From: a virus
Taxonomy: Duplodnaviria; Caudoviricetes
Strand: one strand, 5' to 3'
IMG/VR virus record: IMGVR_UViG_3300043391_000675
Span: 1 to 64,000 of that record
DNA: 64,000 nt
The first letter of the stretch is position 1. Each line of letters starts with the position of its first letter. Below are positions 4,775 through 45,516 of this stretch, one piece after another. The notes beneath the pieces are model-generated. The model was given only the letters and a program-made list of their open reading frames with translations. It was not told where the DNA came from and did no database searches. Both the position numbers and the translations under genes were made by a program.

Positions 4775-5071
4775 TTACCCCTTAATTGCTAGTACGCTTT
4801 TTGTATTCAAAAGCAAATACTTTTCTCCGTCTTCATCTTCAATATCAGTTCCACTGTTTTGATTATAGTATACACTATCTCCAATGGCCAATCCATTAAT
4901 TGGTATAAGCTCACCCTTATAGTTGTGTTCACCATTTCCAAGATCAAGTATCTTGCCAGTTCTAAGATTAGATTCACTTAATGAGGCCATTAAAACTATA
5001 CCAGATGATGTAGTTCTGTCTTCAACTTTATCTTCTTTTACCAACAGAAGATTACCAAAAGGCTTAATCAT
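4775..5071 (-). CDS. groES: Co-chaperonin GroES (Cpn10)
   Basis: IKPFGNLLLVK...TSSGIVL...G.ILDLGNG...IGDSVYY pattern; 98 aa. Confidence 0.9.
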   Translation of the reverse strand: MIKPFGNLLLVKEDKVEDRTTSSGIVLMASLSESNLRTGKILDLGNGEHNYKGELIPINGLAIGDSVYYNQNSGTDIEDEDGEKYLLLNTKSVLAIKG

Positions 5072-5077
5072 TTGTTA

Positions 5078-5239
5078 TTACTCCTCAAAAGATTCTTGTG
5101 TTTCCCAAAAGCTATCCTTTTTAAACTGCTCTTGTATTCTTTTTGCATCTAAAATTACAGAAATTTCTCTATAAAGTTTTATTCCCATGTAAGCACACAC
5201 TGCAAATATAGCTGCAGCAAATATAATAAAGTTATTCAT
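5078..5239 (-). CDS. Small single-pass membrane protein
   Basis: Start moved to the leaderless ATG 6 nt after TGTATAAT; N-terminal hydrophobic helix. Confidence 0.6.
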   Translation of the reverse strand: MNNFIIFAAAIFAVCAYMGIKLYREISVILDAKRIQEQFKKDSFWETQESFEE

Positions 5240-5246
5240 ATCTATA

Positions 5247-5879
5247 TTATACAGTATCTGTGCCAATCGTGTCAATAGATCCTTTATTTATTTCAGGGAA
5301 TATGTCTATTAATAAATGAACTCTATCAATATCACTATCATTTAAAACGGAATGTGGTTTTTGATTGTTTATCTCCCAGCATTCCCCCTCCTTCATATTA
5401 ATAGTTTCTCCATTAACTGTATAAGATACAAGTTCGTTGGTTATTATTGGTATGTGAAATCTTCTGACTGCAGACAGATATTCGCCTTTGTCGGTATGCT
5501 CAGATACATCTCTGTTTGCCAAAAGCCTGATTAGCAAAACCCTGCCAGACACTCCATTACACATTAATTCTAAATCATTTACAATTTTTGAAACAACATC
5601 TAGCATGGCAGGATCTTTAACTTCTGAGATAATTTTATCTCCGAAATTCCAATCAAAGCTGTGGTATTGGATTACAAATGTGTTTGTGTATAGATGAGGA
5701 TTTCTTCTTTCTGAGTACTTACGATTTTGTCTAAAGTCATAGATATTCCATTCATCATTAATTTTCTTTACACTATTTAAAATATCAGACACATCATATT
5801 TTTTATAGAATTTAAAATTAAAATCATCTGGCTTTACTGATAGAGACTCCTTATCTTTAAAGTAGCTCAATTGTTTCAT
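5247..5879 (-). CDS. Aspartyl/asparaginyl beta-hydroxylase family 2OG-Fe(II) oxygenase
   Basis: HTD...RFHIPIITN...GECWEINN..PHSVLN..DRVHLLID. Confidence 0.85.
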   Translation of the reverse strand: MKQLSYFKDKESLSVKPDDFNFKFYKKYDVSDILNSVKKINDEWNIYDFRQNRKYSERRNPHLYTNTFVIQYHSFDWNFGDKIISEVKDPAMLDVVSKIVNDLELMCNGVSGRVLLIRLLANRDVSEHTDKGEYLSAVRRFHIPIITNELVSYTVNGETINMKEGECWEINNQKPHSVLNDSDIDRVHLLIDIFPEINKGSIDTIGTDTV

Positions 5880-6699
5880 TATCCTTTACATAGTTGTATA
5901 TAAAATAATCAATATCGTTATTTTTTAATATTAAATCTATCTCTGATTGTGATAAAAGGGAAATTAGGTAGTCTGTTGTGACACCTTCTTCATTCCCATA
6001 GTTAAAAACTCCAGCATTAACAATTTTATCTTTCTTAAACTCTATGTCTACGTTGTAATTAGTATTAAACCAATTGTTAATATTTGTTTCAAACAAGTCT
6101 ATTCTGTCTAAAGAATTTACTATCTTAAAATCTTTTATTGCCTCTAATGCATTTTCCTTTGAGGTATTTGTATTGTCTATAAACCAACTAAACGCCTCTC
6201 CCCTTTTTAAAAATGGGCTCATTAACTCTTCATAATGATTTGTATAAAAATCTAATGGGCTAAAGGCTCTAGAATCTGCTGAGTTGCATATAAACCTAGA
6301 CTGATAATTATTATGTAACTCAAAATTAGGGTCTTCAAACAAATAGTATCTTAGTTTATCTAAGGGAGATTCTCTTTCTAAATATTCTTTTCTGCTAAAA
6401 AGAGCACGGTTGTGTAGAAAGTTAAAATAGCTAACCCTGGCCTCAACTGGGTTTCTTATTATTGTAGCAACATCAATATCTGGAACAACATCAATAGGAT
6501 ATCTCCCAGCATGCATAGCAGTGTAAACCTTTTTGGCAAAGTTGTTGTTATTTGGATGATGGGTGCTTATATAATAAGATATATCATTAGCGTCTAATGA
6601 TCTTTTAATATTCTCAGAAACATACTTGCCAGCAGTTTTTGGTATGTGCAAAAAGTATAGTTGCTTTAGTTCGACTTGTTTATTATCATTTCGTTCCAC
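5857..6699 (-). CDS. Sulfotransferase family 2 protein
   Basis: YFLHIPKTAG (5'-PSB) and IIRNPVEARVSYF (3'-PB) motifs. Confidence 0.8.
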   Translation of the reverse strand: MERNDNKQVELKQLYFLHIPKTAGKYVSENIKRSLDANDISYYISTHHPNNNNFAKKVYTAMHAGRYPIDVVPDIDVATIIRNPVEARVSYFNFLHNRALFSRKEYLERESPLDKLRYYLFEDPNFELHNNYQSRFICNSADSRAFSPLDFYTNHYEELMSPFLKRGEAFSWFIDNTNTSKENALEAIKDFKIVNSLDRIDLFETNINNWFNTNYNVDIEFKKDKIVNAGVFNYGNEEGVTTDYLISLLSQSEIDLILKNNDIDYFIYNYVKDNETIELL

Positions 6700-7505
6700 T
6701 TGTTAAGGCTCCTTCCTTGATTTAAAGAGCCTTCCTTGTGTCTTTCACGCAAAATTTCTTTCCAGTCTTCTTCTGTATTTTGATTTTTTTCAGCATGCCA
6801 TGCTTCAGAGCCTGGATACTGATATCTCCAGTAAGCTCTAATAAGCGCCTTAGATCCATTTTTAGCTATCATTGGGCTGTGGTAAAAAGGATGTCCAGAT
6901 GGGAAAATGATTAGATCCCCAGCTCCTGGTTTATAAAAAATATGATTTATTAGTGTTTCTTTATCATCACTTAATTCAATTAAATTTATTCCGCCTTCAT
7001 CATAATCATCATTGAGGTAGAACAAGCATGTAGTTCCAAACTTTAGTCCAGGATCTTCTCTTCTTTCTTCTTGGAAATCAGTATGGTAGTTCATACCTTG
7101 AGCTTCATTAACTCCCATTCCATCTTTATAGTAAGCTATATCGACTGAATCCCAACACCAGTTATCATAATTTACCTTTACAGATCCAAAGTAGTGCTCT
7201 GAAGATTCGTGAAAAACCTTAAATAAATCTTTAACATATTGATTGTTTGAAACTTTATCCTCTTTATCAGAAAAATTTTCATCTGTAAATGATTGCCACT
7301 CATCCTTGTTAGGAAATGACTCAAAGCATTTACCAGATGTTGGAATTAGGATATGAAATCCGAACTCATACCAAGGTATGGATCTATCTTCATGGTTAGT
7401 TAAATAGTAATTTAGCATTTCTTTTGAGTTTTTTAAAACATTCTTAAAAACCCAAACTTTATCGTGAAGCTTTAATACTTCAACCTCATTGCCATTGATT
7501 ATCAA
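6666..7505 (-). CDS. Prolyl 4-hydroxylase-like 2OG-Fe(II) oxygenase
   Basis: HTD...YLNDDYDEGG...KPGAGDLIIFPS...YH...K; TTG start. Confidence 0.85.
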   Translation of the reverse strand: MIINGNEVEVLKLHDKVWVFKNVLKNSKEMLNYYLTNHEDRSIPWYEFGFHILIPTSGKCFESFPNKDEWQSFTDENFSDKEDKVSNNQYVKDLFKVFHESSEHYFGSVKVNYDNWCWDSVDIAYYKDGMGVNEAQGMNYHTDFQEERREDPGLKFGTTCLFYLNDDYDEGGINLIELSDDKETLINHIFYKPGAGDLIIFPSGHPFYHSPMIAKNGSKALIRAYWRYQYPGSEAWHAEKNQNTEEDWKEILRERHKEGSLNQGRSLNKWNEMIINKSN

Positions 7506-7543
7506 TTTAAAATACCCAACCTTTATGTAACGTTAATGTTTTA

Positions 7544-7690
7544 TTAAACGTTAGTCTTCCTAGGATGTTTTGGAGTATAGTCTCCAATAATAGCTTTTAT
7601 CCTGCCATCTTTTCTTAATCTTACAATTTTTCCTTCTCGAATAATTGTATCGTTAAAGGGCACTTGCCTACCAAATTTTTTTGGAGGCAC
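7544..7690 (-). CDS. Basic 48-aa protein, not in ORF track
   Basis: GTG start; MPPKKFGRQVPFNDTIIREGKIVRLRKDGRIKAII... Confidence 0.55.
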   Translation of the reverse strand: MPPKKFGRQVPFNDTIIREGKIVRLRKDGRIKAIIGDYTPKHPRKTNV

Positions 7691-7872
7691 TATACTTTTT
7701 TTCTTCCAGTTTTTCTAGGTGCTTGAGGAACAGCTGGTGTTTCTCTTCTAATGCCGTGCTTGTTAACATCAATCTTCATTGGTGGTCTTTTTTCATGGAC
7801 ACCTGATTTAAATTTACCCTGAGAAGGATTTTTTTTAGGCGTATCGTTAGAGTTTACAACGTTTTCTGACAC
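7690..7872 (-). CDS. Small basic protein
   Basis: ORF track; Lys/Arg-rich. Confidence 0.6.
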   Translation of the reverse strand: MSENVVNSNDTPKKNPSQGKFKSGVHEKRPPMKIDVNKHGIRRETPAVPQAPRKTGRKKV

Positions 7873-7979
7873 TATGCACCCTTTATTTGTGATATAGTTA
7901 CAACATTATTACTGGCTGGCGATGAAGATGATTCATTTTGAATTTGCTCATCTTTTCCGCATCCGCAATCTTTACACAT
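7872..7979 (-). CDS. 35-aa MCxxCGC micro-protein, not in ORF track
   Basis: MCKDCGCGKDEQIQNESSSSPASNNVVTISQIKGA; TAATG overlap with the upstream gene. Confidence 0.65.
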   Translation of the reverse strand: MCKDCGCGKDEQIQNESSSSPASNNVVTISQIKGA

Positions 7980-8128
7980 TATTCGTTGATAAACCTTTCT
8001 CTTTGTTCTGGAGTTGAGGTCATGCTTAGAGTAACTCCAGAGTTTCCCTGAGATGTTTTGTCTATGATTGAAACTGGAACTATGCCAGTCTCACTGCCAA
8101 CACTTTGGCATCCACACTCAACGCACAT
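7979..8128 (-). CDS. 49-aa MCxxCGC micro-protein
   Basis: MCVECGCQSVGSETG...; start moved from 8197 to 8128, just after the stop of the upstream ORF. Confidence 0.65.
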   Translation of the reverse strand: MCVECGCQSVGSETGIVPVSIIDKTSQGNSGVTLSMTSTPEQRERFINE

Positions 8129-8129
8129 A

Positions 8130-8279
8130 TTACTTTGGGCCTTGTGCTTGTGCCTGGTTTGACATATCCGTTGATGGGAATGCTGCAGCAGGTGCATCTG
8201 ACAGGTGTAGGTTTAGATCGTTTGATCCTGACTGCTCGCCTGTTTCGTTAAATCCTTTTAAATCTTTTCCGTCTGACAT
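8130..8279 (-). CDS. 49-aa acidic/polar protein, not in ORF track
   Basis: MSDGKDLKGFNETGEQSGSND...QAQGPK, preceded by AGGAG Shine-Dalgarno. Confidence 0.65.
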   Translation of the reverse strand: MSDGKDLKGFNETGEQSGSNDLNLHLSDAPAAAFPSTDMSNQAQAQGPK

Positions 8280-8337
8280 AGTATTACTCCTATAGGTTAT
8301 TTATTTAGGCGGGACTAGTATTCCGCTTATCCATCTA

Positions 8338-9396
8338 TTATATCATTTTTCTATATTCTAAGGCGCTTTTAATATCAGCCCATAGATCATCAATGTTTTC
8401 ACATCCCACAGATAGCCTTATAAGGCTTTCTGGAACGGTGTGGCTCTCTAGTTGCCACCTTCTTCTTCTTTCCCATGTTGACTCTACAGCTCCAAGGCTT
8501 GTGGTATTCGATATCAACATAGCAGAATTACAAACTAGGTCTGCATCTTCAGCAGTTCCATGAATATCAAAAGATATGACTCCGCTAAACCCTGGATAGA
8601 AAACCTCCTTGACATTCTCATTTTTAGATAGAAGCTGAGCCAGAATTTTAGCATTGGTTTCAGCCTTTTCAAATCTTAAGCTAAACGTTCTCATTCCTCG
8701 TAAAGCCAAATAAGCCTCAAATGGCTGAATTATTGTTCCAGATAGTTTTCTTGTGAACTCTATATTATCGAATATTACATTGTTATTAGTCGATATAGAT
8801 CCAGCTAGCACATCTGAGTGACCAGCCATATATTTAGTTACTGAGTTTAAAGATATGTCAGCTCCCATGTCTAATGGCACTTGTCTTAGTGGCGTAGCAA
8901 ATGTGTTATCTACTCCAACTAAAACTCCTAAACTTTTAGCATATTTAATTATTTTTTCTAAATCAGCTACCTTTAATAAGGGATTAGTTGGGGTCTCAAT
9001 CCAAACCATAAAGGCATCTTCCATGTTATCTAATACTTCTTCTGTATTGGCTATGTCTACAAACCTAAGAATTATCTTTCCATCATGATGCATTCTTCTA
9101 AGTGTTTCTGTAATTCCAGCATAGCCTTGATCTGATGCCACAATTATTGATCCGTGTGGTATGTTTGAAGCTATTGCATTAAATGCAGACATTCCAGATG
9201 AAAACGCTAATGTTTTACCATGTTCTAATGAAGCTATTACATTCTCTAAGTCTAAGCATGATTGATTGCCGTATCTTGAATACCCAACATCGCCTCCAGC
9301 GTGTAGCGTTGAGTTCAATGATACCGAGCTATTCATTCCTACATCTGGACCAGCTTCTGGTCTACCTAAATGTATTACACTAGTCTCGTTCTTCAT
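8338..9396 (-). CDS. metB: Cystathionine gamma-synthase / beta-lyase family PLP enzyme
   Basis: YSRYGN, FSSGMSA, VWIETPTNP, VDNTFATP, SVTKYMAGHSD (PLP Lys), LIRLSVGCE; reaction specificity not resolved. Confidence 0.85.
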   Translation of the reverse strand: MKNETSVIHLGRPEAGPDVGMNSSVSLNSTLHAGGDVGYSRYGNQSCLDLENVIASLEHGKTLAFSSGMSAFNAIASNIPHGSIIVASDQGYAGITETLRRMHHDGKIILRFVDIANTEEVLDNMEDAFMVWIETPTNPLLKVADLEKIIKYAKSLGVLVGVDNTFATPLRQVPLDMGADISLNSVTKYMAGHSDVLAGSISTNNNVIFDNIEFTRKLSGTIIQPFEAYLALRGMRTFSLRFEKAETNAKILAQLLSKNENVKEVFYPGFSGVISFDIHGTAEDADLVCNSAMLISNTTSLGAVESTWERRRRWQLESHTVPESLIRLSVGCENIDDLWADIKSALEYRKMI

Positions 9397-9457
9397 CTTT
9401 ATCCTCTTTTTCATTACCTGGCCCTACATGACTAGCACAGCCACATATCCAACACAT
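9380..9457 (-). CDS. 25-aa MCxxCGC micro-protein, not in ORF track
   Basis: MCWICGCASHVGPGNEKEDKDEERD; ATG abuts the radical SAM stop, and the ORF overlaps the metB start. Confidence 0.55.
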   Translation of the reverse strand: MCWICGCASHVGPGNEKEDKDEERD

Positions 9458-10459
9458 TCAATTACTCCATATAGCAGCTGAGCACCTGGTGCACATGCCA
9501 GAATATGAGTCTTCTATCATGTCCGTTCTCTCTTTGCTTAGCCATATATCTTTAATTGTAGATTTGTTAGAATTCCCATAAACTGTCTTAAAATCAAAAT
9601 CGGCACAGCATATAAAAAAATCCCCATTTGGATTAATATGAATCCATTCATTGGTTCTGCTTCTTACGCCTAATCCACCATTACATCCTATTACCTTCTT
9701 GCCTTCTCCCGCCAAATATTTATTAATAGCTGAAGTCTGATCAATTATTCCTGAATCAGCAAGGTGGCCTGCTCTGTCGTATAAATGATGAGCTGGGAAA
9801 ACCTGAATTGACGGGAATAAAGATTTAAGCAGAATGACCTCTTGTGCTAAATCTCCACTCTCTACATCTAAATTTAAATCTGGAGCACCAGGAAGTATAT
9901 CAAGCCACCCACCATTTTCAACTAATGAATTGCTGTTTAATCCATTAACCATTAAATAGAATCTATCTTCTAATACTAATTCTTTTAGCTCTTCTGCAGC
10001 ATACAAAACACTGTCAACCATCTTATCAAACATTTTTTCATTTAAATTTACATATTTAGACCATCTAGTTTTATCTCCAGATGGTATATTTAAAAGTATT
10101 CCTCCGACTACATCAATATTTTTTTTAATAATATCAACTTTTTTCTTAGTAAGTGGGGTGCCATTTGTAAGAATGTTTATTGTAAATCCATATTTTCTGT
10201 ACACATCAAACATTTCTTCAAAATTTTTATATAATAAAACTTCATTGTAGTTAGCAGTAAAAATATTTGTTAAATTAGGATCAACAAAGTCTCCTTTGCC
10301 AGAATGAAGTTGAGAGAGTATGTGATCTAACTCCCCCAACTCCATATCTCTAATGGCAGATTTTGGATTTCCTTCGTAAGAAACTGGGCAAAACCAGCAT
10401 CCAGCATTACATAGACCATTTACGTCTATCTGTACTGCGCCAATCTTGTATTGTGACAA
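9458..10459 (-). CDS. Radical SAM enzyme with SPASM/twitch domain
   Basis: CNAGCWFC (CxxxCxxC); C-terminal C...INPNGDFFICC.D...CTRC. Confidence 0.9.
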   Translation of the reverse strand: MSQYKIGAVQIDVNGLCNAGCWFCPVSYEGNPKSAIRDMELGELDHILSQLHSGKGDFVDPNLTNIFTANYNEVLLYKNFEEMFDVYRKYGFTINILTNGTPLTKKKVDIIKKNIDVVGGILLNIPSGDKTRWSKYVNLNEKMFDKMVDSVLYAAEELKELVLEDRFYLMVNGLNSNSLVENGGWLDILPGAPDLNLDVESGDLAQEVILLKSLFPSIQVFPAHHLYDRAGHLADSGIIDQTSAINKYLAGEGKKVIGCNGGLGVRSRTNEWIHINPNGDFFICCADFDFKTVYGNSNKSTIKDIWLSKERTDMIEDSYSGMCTRCSAAIWSN

Positions 10460-10460
10460 A

Positions 10461-10931
10461 TTAGTCTTTCAATGACTTCCATGGGTTTGGAGGAAGCTTT
10501 AAGCTTGACTCAAGGAACCAGTTCCACTCTTGATGAGCAGACAGTCGATTAGATAGGTACGAAGATAATCCGTACTCATTATTTGCATTTGCAATAGAGA
10601 TCAAAACCTTAATGTCTTCAATCATCTTTTTATTAATTGGAACTAAATGGATTGCCATCTCAACGCCGCAATATGTGTCTGGCTTAACATTTCCAAGTGA
10701 CTGGTACTTCGCATAATCTTCAAGTGTATACGAAGCCTCTGCTCCAAGCTTTCTTAGCCAAGTAGATGTTTCATGAACAGCTTTTTCTGAGTTCTCATAA
10801 ATTTCTTCATAAACAATTCTAGATTGTCTCATTAGAGTTGACTCATTATTCCAAAAAAGCCCTCTTACCAAATCAGTATATACAACTGAATTAGCCTGAA
10901 ATGTCTTTAATAGACTGATTAGGATTTCCAT
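10461..10931 (-). CDS. dps: Dps/ferritin-like DNA protection protein
   Basis: 156 aa four-helix pattern (HWN-like FWNNE, LAERIRALG-like WLRKLG, HEKxxWFL-like HQEWNWFL); ferroxidase residues look partly diverged. Confidence 0.75.
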   Translation of the reverse strand: MEILISLLKTFQANSVVYTDLVRGLFWNNESTLMRQSRIVYEEIYENSEKAVHETSTWLRKLGAEASYTLEDYAKYQSLGNVKPDTYCGVEMAIHLVPINKKMIEDIKVLISIANANNEYGLSSYLSNRLSAHQEWNWFLESSLKLPPNPWKSLKD

Positions 10932-13339: not shown

Positions 13340-13534
13340 TTAGTTTAGTTCATTTACTTTTACATGGAATGAACATGGGTCTCCACCCTCATTCCATTCT
13401 TGTTCTTCTTCATCTGTTAGTGGTGGGCCATCATGTGTATTACAAAATACATCTGATATCCATCCTCTATCGTAACCACTTTTGAGCCATATCTCAAACT
13501 CTAAATGATCTGAATCTATATTCTCTAGATCCAT
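13340..13534 (-). CDS. Hypothetical protein
   Basis: ORF track. Confidence 0.65.
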   Translation of the reverse strand: MDLENIDSDHLEFEIWLKSGYDRGWISDVFCNTHDGPPLTDEEEQEWNEGGDPCSFHVKVNELN

Positions 13535-13827
13535 TCTGAAAGCTCTTCTAGCATAATATGCTTAGGTTTTGCACCAGTAATAGTTTTTACTGGCTTACCC
13601 TTCTTAAATAGTACCATATAAGGTATAGATGTTACAGAGTATTCTGCTGATTTGATAGGATTCTCATCAACATTTAGTTTGCCGACCCATAATCCAAGCT
13701 CTTTAGATATCTCATCTAGTATTGGAGACACCTTCAAGCATGGTCCGCACCATGGAGCCCAAAAATCAATAAGGACTAGATTATGATAATCTAGCACCCT
13801 ACTAAAGCTTTCGTCTGTAACTATCAA
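13525..13827 (-). CDS. trxA: Thioredoxin
   Basis: DFWAPWCGPC active site; SIP cis-Pro motif. Confidence 0.93.
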   Translation of the reverse strand: MIVTDESFSRVLDYHNLVLIDFWAPWCGPCLKVSPILDEISKELGLWVGKLNVDENPIKSAEYSVTSIPYMVLFKKGKPVKTITGAKPKHIMLEELSEWI

Positions 13828-45279: not shown

Positions 45280-45516
45280 TTACCATTTGTCTACAGGACA
45301 AGTGGCTAATTGAAGCTTTGTTTTAGCCGCCATAAAGCAGCCACATTCAGAACATGTTTTAGTTGTCTGATTAAAAAGAGGGCATTCTAAGCATATAGAA
45401 TACCTTTTATCAGCTAAATCCTTATCTGCATACTCTGTATTTGGATCTAGAAAATCCCATGGCTTTACCCCATCGGAAGTTACTAGATTTTTCATCTGTT
45501 GCCATTTGCTAGCCAA
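45280..45516 (-). CDS. Cys-rich protein (DUF6171-like)
   Basis: ICLECP...TCSECGCFM..K...ATCPVDKW; TTG start at 45516. Confidence 0.7.
   Translation of the reverse strand: MASKWQQMKNLVTSDGVKPWDFLDPNTEYADKDLADKRYSICLECPLFNQTTKTCSECGCFMAAKTKLQLATCPVDKW

Follow-up and report, generated by a model that had tools for sequence, protein, structure and literature searches.

Phage micro-proteins with a HypB-type N-terminal cysteine hook, one of them paired with a putative BtrN-like radical SAM enzyme

Two kinds of described system bear on the micro-proteins considered here. PqqA/PqqE and MftA/MftC, in which a peptide is modified in its C-terminal part by a radical SAM (rSAM) enzyme, need a PqqD/RRE partner. 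In HypB, the free amine of the N-terminus and three thiolates hold Ni(II) in square-planar geometry; methionine aminopeptidase permits the removal of Met1 when the second residue is Cys. The HypB motif lies in a disordered N-terminal extension and binds Ni(II) with picomolar affinity via the N-terminal amine and Cys2, Cys5 and Cys7, and short maquettes of it bind both Ni and Zn (PMC12284835). A literature search on CxxCGC, on phage rSAM enzymes and peptides that are made on the ribosome and modified after translation (RiPPs), and on cysteine-rich small proteins of phages returned the HypB work only, and no phage peptides of this kind. Here we describe such peptides in a 64,000-nucleotide stretch of phage DNA (hereafter the window), which is the first 64 kb of the 90,005-bp IMG/VR record IMGVR_UViG_3300043391_000675. 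Three micro-protein genes, pepA, pepB and pepC, are clustered there with a gene for an rSAM enzyme.

How do these peptides compare with HypB? On the minus strand we find pepA (25 residues; MCWICGCASHVGPGN and an acidic tail; 9380–9457), pepB (49 residues; MCVECGCQSVGSETG...TPEQRERFINE; 7979–8128) and pepC (35 residues; MCKDCGCG...NVVTISQIKGA; 7872–7979), with the starts MCWICGC, MCVECGC and MCKDCGC. The original prediction had called these three open reading frames (ORFs) correctly, and the sequence bears out its account of their junctions: pepA begins immediately after the rSAM stop and overlaps the metB start, and pepB and pepC share a TAATG overlap. Each carries C-x-x-C-G-C at residues 2–7, and the tail behind it is disordered and either polar or acidic. 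The E. coli HypB start, MCTTCGCGEGN, is likewise M-C-x-x-C-G-C at residues 1–7, and one phage oxygenase described below starts identically, with MCTTCGC. Unlike HypB, the phage peptides stand alone or cap a 2-oxoglutarate (2OG) oxygenase; they have no GTPase domain (the ORFs end at 25, 49 and 35 residues), are not linked to genes for hydrogenase maturation and form several paralogous families, and the Gly of the pepC motif varies. The NCBIfam model HypB_prefix_1 (NF053667) matches residues 1–17 or 1–22 of 22 of 22 pepA sequences at 17–19 bits (E 0.002–0.009; cut-off 30 bits), and matches neither pepB nor pepC. We conclude that the three ORFs are members of a large class of phage micro-proteins, as yet without a name, whose defining feature is an N-terminal hook of three cysteines of the HypB type. 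The explanation we favour is that the hooks would be modular metal-binding devices and pepA a dedicated accessory of the rSAM enzyme; we regard this as evenly poised between right and wrong.

Are these short frames genes at all? Searched for as a DNA pattern, M-C-x-x-C-G-C turns up three times in the window, whereas 100 shuffles that preserved dinucleotides gave it 0.00 times. Across the 90,005-bp record it occurs three times on the coding strand, never on the other strand and never in the reversed control. Cys2, Cys5 and Cys7 are invariant within the families. Outside the searched pattern, G12 of pepA is invariant and G14 and N15 are nearly so (31 of 32), while G11, S12 and G15 of pepB are all invariant; each of these residues is encoded by two to four synonymous codons, which shows that selection acts on the protein. 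A pepB start at the MC codon, and not at the upstream in-frame ATG at 8197, is supported by relatives in which the upstream frame is closed two to five codons ahead of the MC start. We conclude from these comparisons that the three ORFs are conserved genes under purifying selection. The original prediction had proposed tracing the peptides across related phages; they prove to be conserved and selected there, and fall into two groups by co-occurrence. As a separate observation, the sole in-frame internal C-x-x-C-G-C on the coding strand of the window lies at 45354 (minus), in a small CxxC-rich protein (...CSECGCFMAAKTK...CP..KW). In L041 (3613–3843) a homologue of this protein is encoded upstream of a distantly homologous rSAM, at a distance of about 1.1 kb, L-numbers denoting loci retrieved for comparison.

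Two details of the earlier description need amendment. The heptad MCxxCGC is shared by the three peptides of the window but is not the invariant of the families: only Met1, Cys2, Cys5 and Cys7 are constant across them, giving M-C-x-x-C-x-C, and position 6 is A, S, N or T instead of G in many pepC sequences. Nor are the peptides wholly unannotated, since pepB-like genes appear as ‘hypothetical protein’ in public metagenome annotation. The ESM Atlas holds letter-for-letter entries for pepB and for a pepA homologue, and the clusters returned are named ‘hypothetical protein’ only.

Transcripts were sought in RNA libraries. Metatranscriptome contigs from four freshwater runs cover 7689–8307, which takes in pepB, pepC and the neighbouring micro-protein genes g8130 and g7690, at approximately 96–100% identity. 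They diverge at both ends of this interval and therefore stem from relatives that lack the rSAM cassette. Such cover is only consistent with transcription. No RNA-library contigs lie on rSAM, pepA or MetB, an absence of cover that is no evidence.

Where does the hook stand in each protein? It occupies residues 2–7 in families A, B, C, D and F and in a 46-residue neighbour of F, on tails that are otherwise different; the hook peptide families are 23–63 residues long. Ligation by the amine, assuming that Met1 is removed, would explain why the motif never leaves the N-terminus in any family. The hook also caps an enzyme. It forms an N-terminal extension of about 30 residues on a 2OG-Fe(II) oxygenase (PF13640) at two loci, with the starts MCNSCGC (L016:4515–5231) and MCTTCGC (L030, start near 1848), and the linker behind it contains DIID and is similar to the tail of pepA. 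Orthologues of this oxygenase at 45–51% identity (L018, L021, L080, L119) start some 20–35 residues later and lack the hook. Family F, a Lys-rich protein of 60–61 residues (MCAMCGCGKKKG...), is found in about 18 contigs from another group of phages, with which the window has no gene in common; its DADKDGKLEGSDF loop gives sub-threshold EF-hand, dockerin and Excalibur matches only. The family F loci are L306 (3620–3945), L257, L262, L264, L270–L275, L282, L286, L289, L294, L301, L303 and L304. Beside family F lies the second hook peptide, MCATCGCG... (46 residues), within a run of small basic genes in a structural-gene region, and a gene near this run looks, on our own reading, like a tail sheath gene.

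Do pepB and pepC belong with the rSAM enzyme? A pattern scan for pepB returned at least 119 contigs, and 99 of those listed were not already known. Among the matches listed, to which all counts for these pepB-only contigs refer, rSAM, pepA, MetB-like and Dps-like genes are each present in 0 of the 99. What these contigs keep is the syntenic block g8130–pepB–(pepC)–g7690, with g8130 in 82, g7690 in 94 and pepC in 22 of them; 83 of the 99 contain both flanks of an empty cassette slot. Family D (MCxMCGCG...MPNQNVYDVGPG...), which is allelic to pepB and replaces it in some phages, occurs in 35 further contigs of the same phage group, again with no rSAM and no pepA. Over the 99 and the 35 contigs together rSAM, pepA and MetB are absent, and so, bar one exception, is the Dps-like gene. 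The reach of pepB is considerable: there are 70 distinct relatives in IMG/VR loci, and a search of 5.8 billion proteins with its profile gives at least 501 clusters at E ≤ 0.001, every one unnamed or ‘hypothetical’, on contigs of up to about 124 kb. We conclude that pepB and pepC belong to the gene backbone of a large group of freshwater phages that are uncultivated and probably infect actinobacteria.

These distributions bear directly on the first hypothesis of the original prediction, that all three peptides are precursors of sacti- or ranthipeptide-like RiPPs matured by the rSAM enzyme. Its appeal lay in a common Cys-rich motif and in an rSAM/SPASM gene no more than 2.6 kb away. By the refutation criterion of the prediction itself it fails for pepB and pepC, given the contigs of pepB, pepC and family D that have no rSAM and the many that hold both flanks of an empty slot; pepA alone is strictly linked to the enzyme, and the co-occurrence of peptide and rSAM accordingly holds for pepA (46 of 46, below) and not for the other two. 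The locus L001, moreover, keeps pepB and pepC and has lost pepA. The prediction had itself pointed to the want of an obvious leader or RRE: Pfam shows no RRE, and there is no leader, the conserved part of the peptide beginning at residue 2. A RiPP origin for all three peptides is thus very improbable indeed.

The same families offer a different possibility, namely that the micro-proteins act in host takeover or regulation by binding a protein of the host or of the phage, the hook serving for folding (as a Zn knuckle, for example) or for targeting only, with no part in metal economy. There are conserved segments beyond the hook that would suit such a role: the C-terminus of pepB reads ...G.T..M..TPEQ...FI, and the pepC family, MCKDC[GASNT]CG with Cys2, Cys5 and Cys7 invariant, ends in the conserved NVVTISQIKGA. 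A run of small coupled genes is also typical of the early or accessory regions of phages. But pepB forms truncated to 30–35 residues, without the C-terminal segment, are common, and the hook is the sole element common to the families and lineages. We consider takeover peptides of this kind quite doubtful.

What, then, of pepA? The rSAM search returned 78 IMG/VR loci, and every one whose rSAM is at least 60% identical, L001 excepted, has MCW[ILM]CGCADH[VI]G[LP]GN directly after rSAM or after an intervening MetB. Scanning IMG/VR independently for the DNA pattern of pepA gave 46 contigs, with rSAM adjacent in 46 of 46, and pepA is present in 46 of the 47 contigs that contain an rSAM of this clade. 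The distance from rSAM stop to pepA start is 0–12 nt. In the window the pepA ATG follows the rSAM stop TGA (9458–9460) directly, in the same frame and with no spacer, and a GGAG lies 7 nt upstream of the ATG. Here (window 9455–9463) only a single TGA parts the two ORFs (...AIWSN*MCWICGC...), such that read-through would fuse both products; the spacing differs elsewhere. The family comprises 26 distinct sequences of 23–41 residues, with 16 residues near-invariant.

Such coupling invites the comparison with PqqA/PqqE and MftA/MftC. There, too, a peptide gene of this size with a short, highly conserved segment strictly adjoins a SPASM-type rSAM gene. pepA alone might be a precursor, its N-terminal core CWxCGCADHxGxGN being modified by the adjacent rSAM through a thioether or C–C cross-link, thiol oxidation or epimerisation, after which the pyridoxal phosphate (PLP) C–S lyase, where present, would process it. 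The product would be a peptide-derived cofactor or small molecule, formed as in those systems but from an N-terminal core with no leader, and pepB and pepC would be functionally unrelated. The adjacency, the near-universal presence of pepA beside the clade rSAM, the short spacing and a set of 16 near-invariant residues that exceeds the need of a metal triad all speak for a substrate. So do the Pfam SPASM call, the presence of SkfB, CteB, SuiB and YydG/EpeE among the fold and profile neighbours of the enzyme, and the co-occurrence of MetB with this pair only, over a range of about 3 kb and in at least four arrangements. On the other hand, the extreme N-terminus is the conserved part here, close homologues of the enzyme lack a peptide, and there is no RRE or PqqD domain, the CxxxCxxC of the enzyme beginning at residue 17 and its conserved auxiliary cysteines numbering only five. 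No protease, transporter or immunity gene is seen nearby.

The tail of pepA also bears on the matter. In the window, L015, L017 and L019 MetB is inserted into pepA, which is cut there to 23–25 residues. After MetB in the window there remains a vestige of the ancestral C-terminus, KNDIIDG* (8327–8350, minus strand, by translation), out of frame with the MetB-like gene and overlapping its 3′ end; the same vestige is found in the other three loci, and L014 has the intact tail ...NQLNDIIDS*. Because residues 1–16 alone stay conserved when MetB has entered the tail, only these are indispensable, and a semi-conserved tail that could have served a precursor as a follower has been lost. The pepA of the window is 92–96% and its MetB 87–88% identical to those of L015 and L019, while its rSAM is only 66–70% identical to theirs and 93–95% identical to those of L001 and L002. 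We infer from this mismatch that pepA variants have been exchanged between diverged rSAM enzymes.

Can the enzyme do without the peptide? L001, the closest relative, has an intact rSAM (95% identical) and of pepA a remnant only, GN*RDPRVDVDPNQLNDIIDS*. This pseudogene (L001:2341–2420) lacks roughly its first 14 codons, among them the ATG and those of all three Cys, and ahead of what is left of the tail stands a TAA in frame. L001 is also without the MetB-like and Dps-like genes. At 61% identity the rSAM homologue of L226, a contig binned with a Sediminibacterium metagenome-assembled genome, has TylF-like methyltransferases and a gene like those for sulfotransferases as neighbours, and no pepA. 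At 35–44% identity the homologues stand between oxygenases like prolyl 4-hydroxylase (P4H) and N-acetylglucosamine- (GlcNAc-), GT2- or mannosyl-transferases, and none has a Cys peptide. As judged from these loci, the rSAM enzyme has a role independent of pepA. Predicted complexes of rSAM and pepA (alignments of 20 and 22 rows) scored 0.02–0.03 against a mark of 0.32, which is ‘no answer’ and evidence neither way. The enzyme-side findings count against pepA as a precursor, as does BtrN, the nearest solved relative, which acts on an aminocyclitol, together with the recurrence of the same hook in many peptides without rSAM; we hold a precursor role to be possible though unlikely.

The enzyme itself (333 residues; 9458–10459, minus strand; PF04055 and PF13186) has a SPASM/twitch-type C-terminal domain. 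Its only Pfam domains are Radical_SAM (16–173) and SPASM (270–326), with no RRE/PqqD-like domain; there is no room for one, because CxxxCxxC begins at residue 17. The invariant cysteines are C17, C21 and C24 together with C259, C284, C285, C323 and C326, that is five auxiliary ones, a full SPASM domain with two auxiliary clusters having at least seven. Among RiPP enzymes there are twitch-type ones as well, SkfB for example. The family profile finds BtrN (4m7t) best in the PDB, at E 1.5e-13 over two stretches, followed by YydG. The AlphaFold 2 model (pLDDT 84.9) has as its top folds DesII, BtrN, SkfB, CteB, SuiB and BlsE, and Foldseek places BtrN third at E 7.6e-9. All of these are at a template-modelling (TM) score of about 0.5, so fold alone cannot separate sugar chemistry from peptide chemistry. 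The NCBIfam model N_Twi_rSAM matches weakly, at 24 bits against a cut-off of 170. We classify the enzyme, on these profiles and models, as a predicted BtrN-like twitch rSAM enzyme. BtrN being the best profile match, DesII and BtrN standing among the top folds, and the short auxiliary domain with its five conserved Cys all speak for this likeness, and its distant homologues in phages have glycosyltransferases and methyltransferases as neighbours. Identity to BtrN and DesII is nevertheless 11–15% and the TM score only about 0.5, and RiPP maturases score almost equally; no sugar pathway is evident beside the enzyme of the window, and BtrN has no companion peptide.

Among the distant homologues, seven loci (L045, L048, L059, L068, L070, L072 and L076; rSAM at about 5001–5900) show a conserved trio of P4H-like 2OG oxygenase, rSAM and GlcNAc-type glycosyltransferase (PF11397), which adjoins large proteins with Pro/Thr-rich PTPTP repeats. 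The arrangement suggests that virion proteins are glycosylated at hydroxyproline with a sugar modified by the rSAM enzyme. Cellular homologues at 22–26% identity, in Streptomyces hiroshimensis (L238:3524–6665) and similarly in L234–L247, have an N-terminal extension of about 150 residues, and after them come another rSAM and a protein of the creatininase family (PF02633), a layout like that of a RiPP cluster; at 22–26% identity they are too distant for a transfer of function. A different assignment comes from viruses of Nanopelagicales (Planktophila), which are reported to carry katG and an rSAM with SPASM annotated ‘ahbD’ (bioRxiv 10.1101/2024.02.06.579183). That protein is likewise an rSAM with a SPASM domain, and the phage type of the window fits the description. 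The heme synthase AhbD itself we reject for the window enzyme: TIGR04545 has no match in the 90-kb genome at E ≤ 1, while matching in all 14 control genomes, and AhbD is missing from the NCBIfam match list of the enzyme at E ≤ 10.

Which genes accompany rSAM and pepA? Of the 47 contigs with the clade rSAM, 25 have a MetB-like and 24 a Dps-like gene. The MetB-like gene occurs in none of the 99 pepB-only contigs, and in this the original prediction was right to call it rSAM-associated; its role is presumptive. It co-occurs solely with the rSAM–pepA pair, within about 3 kb, and takes at least four positions: inside pepA, between rSAM and pepA, after g7690 and after an oxygenase. Its product, a Cys/Met-metabolism PLP enzyme resembling cystathionine gamma-lyase, beta-lyase or gamma-synthase (8338–9414, minus strand), matches PF01053 over its full length (E 8.3e-82, residues 43–353) and shows the PLP-lysine motif S-x-T-K as SVTKY. 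None of the NCBIfam equivalog models reaches its cut-off with this protein, the best being PRK07582 for cystathionine gamma-lyase, and its closest PDB entries are a cystathionine beta-lyase and a bifunctional cystathionine gamma-lyase/homocysteine desulfhydrase. The Dps/ferritin-like protein (156 residues; 10461–10931, minus strand), a variable member of the cassette, is a weak match to Pfam Ferritin (E 3e-4; 21.2 bits against a cut-off of 24.5) and gives full-length, weak PDB matches to Dps-family chains at E 1.5e-4 to 0.03. We conclude that rSAM and pepA form an accessory cassette, often with a Dps-like gene and a Cys/Met PLP enzyme.

Might the hooks be thiol redox or Fe–S modules and not chelators of single ions? 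CxC peptides can mimic disulfide isomerase. The overlapping CxxC and CxC pairs might be oxidised reversibly to disulfides, in concert with the thioredoxin of the phage, whose gene (13525–13827) lies in the same conserved block. Alternatively, two peptides might ligate one cluster, as a mini-ferredoxin or sulfur relay, with pepA giving electrons or sulfide to rSAM, the Dps-like protein iron, and the lyase sulfide or cysteine. Three invariant cysteines at these spacings would suit either variant, as would a cassette that unites a Dps-like protein, an Fe–S enzyme and a member of a family in which some lyases form H2S, and the likely hosts are reported to be sensitive to H2O2 (bioRxiv 10.1101/2024.02.06.579183). 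Both variants leave the exact placement of the motif at residues 2–7 in every family unexplained, however, and beyond the spacing there is no likeness to known ferredoxin or thioredoxin motifs. We judge redox or Fe–S modules distinctly unlikely.

We return to the metal-binding hooks. Methionine aminopeptidase would strip Met1, after which the freed amine would join the three thiolates in chelating a soft metal, which could be Ni, Zn, Cu(I), Co or Fe. The peptides might buffer, store or hand over this metal during infection. pepB and pepC would act independently of rSAM, and pepA would be a specialised paralogue that serves the adjacent BtrN-like enzyme, probably as a metal, Fe–S or thiol helper and not as its substrate. 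This proposal accounts for the fixed position of the motif, for its spread, as a module, to tails that are unrelated and to an Fe(II) enzyme, for the dispensable tail of pepA and for cassette partners that are related to metal or sulfur. The original prediction had listed HypB-like metal binding as its second hypothesis; from the identity and position of the motif, it appears to fit all members better than the first, and we retain it in this qualified form.

Several observations weigh against it. The three cysteines could equally serve redox chemistry, Fe–S ligation or enzymatic modification, and the HypB_prefix_1 matches, all under the cut-off, rest on a short motif. Beyond the metal triad, pepA keeps W3, A8, D9, H10, G12, G14 and N15, which suggests recognition by a protein, possibly by the rSAM active site, and strict coupling of a peptide to an rSAM/SPASM-type enzyme is a classic peptide-substrate signature. 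Judged by eye, the Dps-like protein has no obvious canonical ferroxidase His pair. Finally, the contigs behind the co-occurrence counts are related to one another, and the events counted are therefore not independent. A combined scheme can also be drawn, in which pepA would be the leaderless, N-terminal-core precursor of a cofactor or metallophore, made by an RRE-free twitch rSAM and trimmed by a PLP C–S lyase in a lytic freshwater phage, and in which the hook peptides would be an unrecognised strategy for capturing or re-routing host metal; we think this unlikely.

The minus-strand order at the locus is Dps-like gene, rSAM, pepA, Cys/Met PLP enzyme, a 49-residue acidic protein, pepB, pepC and two basic proteins of 60 and 48 residues, all the small genes being called as ORFs. 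g8130 (49 residues, acidic; 8130–8279) opens the g8130–pepB–pepC–g7690 block and has a strong AGGAG ribosome-binding site. The pepB ATG lies 1 nt past its stop. g7690 (60 residues, basic; 7690–7872), the conserved downstream partner of the block, is translationally coupled to pepC, and the 48-residue basic micro-protein (7544–7690), conserved in many related loci, closes the run of small genes. The junctions read TAAtATG, TAATG (pepB/pepC) and TAGTG (pepC and the next gene). Between 7400 and 11200 a terminator scan found none, and promoter-like sites are at or below the shuffle expectation.

What is the phage that carries this locus? Every gene of the window is on the minus strand, the GC content is about 37%, there are five tRNA genes, and the completeness of the record is estimated at 83%. 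The NiSOD model PF09055 gave no match in the phage genome and none in the control genomes either, so that this search is uninformative. The large terminase is 63% identical to Streptomyces phage terminases, and phage DNA was matched in freshwater and lake metagenomes; for these reasons we regard the phage as probably an uncultivated freshwater actinophage. Its host may lie in Nanopelagicales, an assignment we infer. The likely hosts have streamlined genomes and are short of reduced sulfur. A collection of isolated phages gave no DNA match to 7500–10800 of the window, no protein match to its rSAM and a chance-level match only to pepB; MetB matches in the same collection were rejected as records of bacterial contaminants.

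If the hooks bind metal as HypB does, phages of abundant freshwater bacteria would hold a widespread toolkit of metal-handling peptides of 25–60 residues. It would span hundreds of clusters, six micro-protein families and an enzyme fusion, in at least two unrelated phage lineages, and would have been overlooked by gene annotation. Metal economy (Ni, Zn, Fe, Cu) would then join the known modes by which phages reprogram their hosts. The pairing of pepA with rSAM offers a tractable case, which may prove to be either a dedicated micro-chaperone for a radical SAM enzyme or a new leaderless peptide product.

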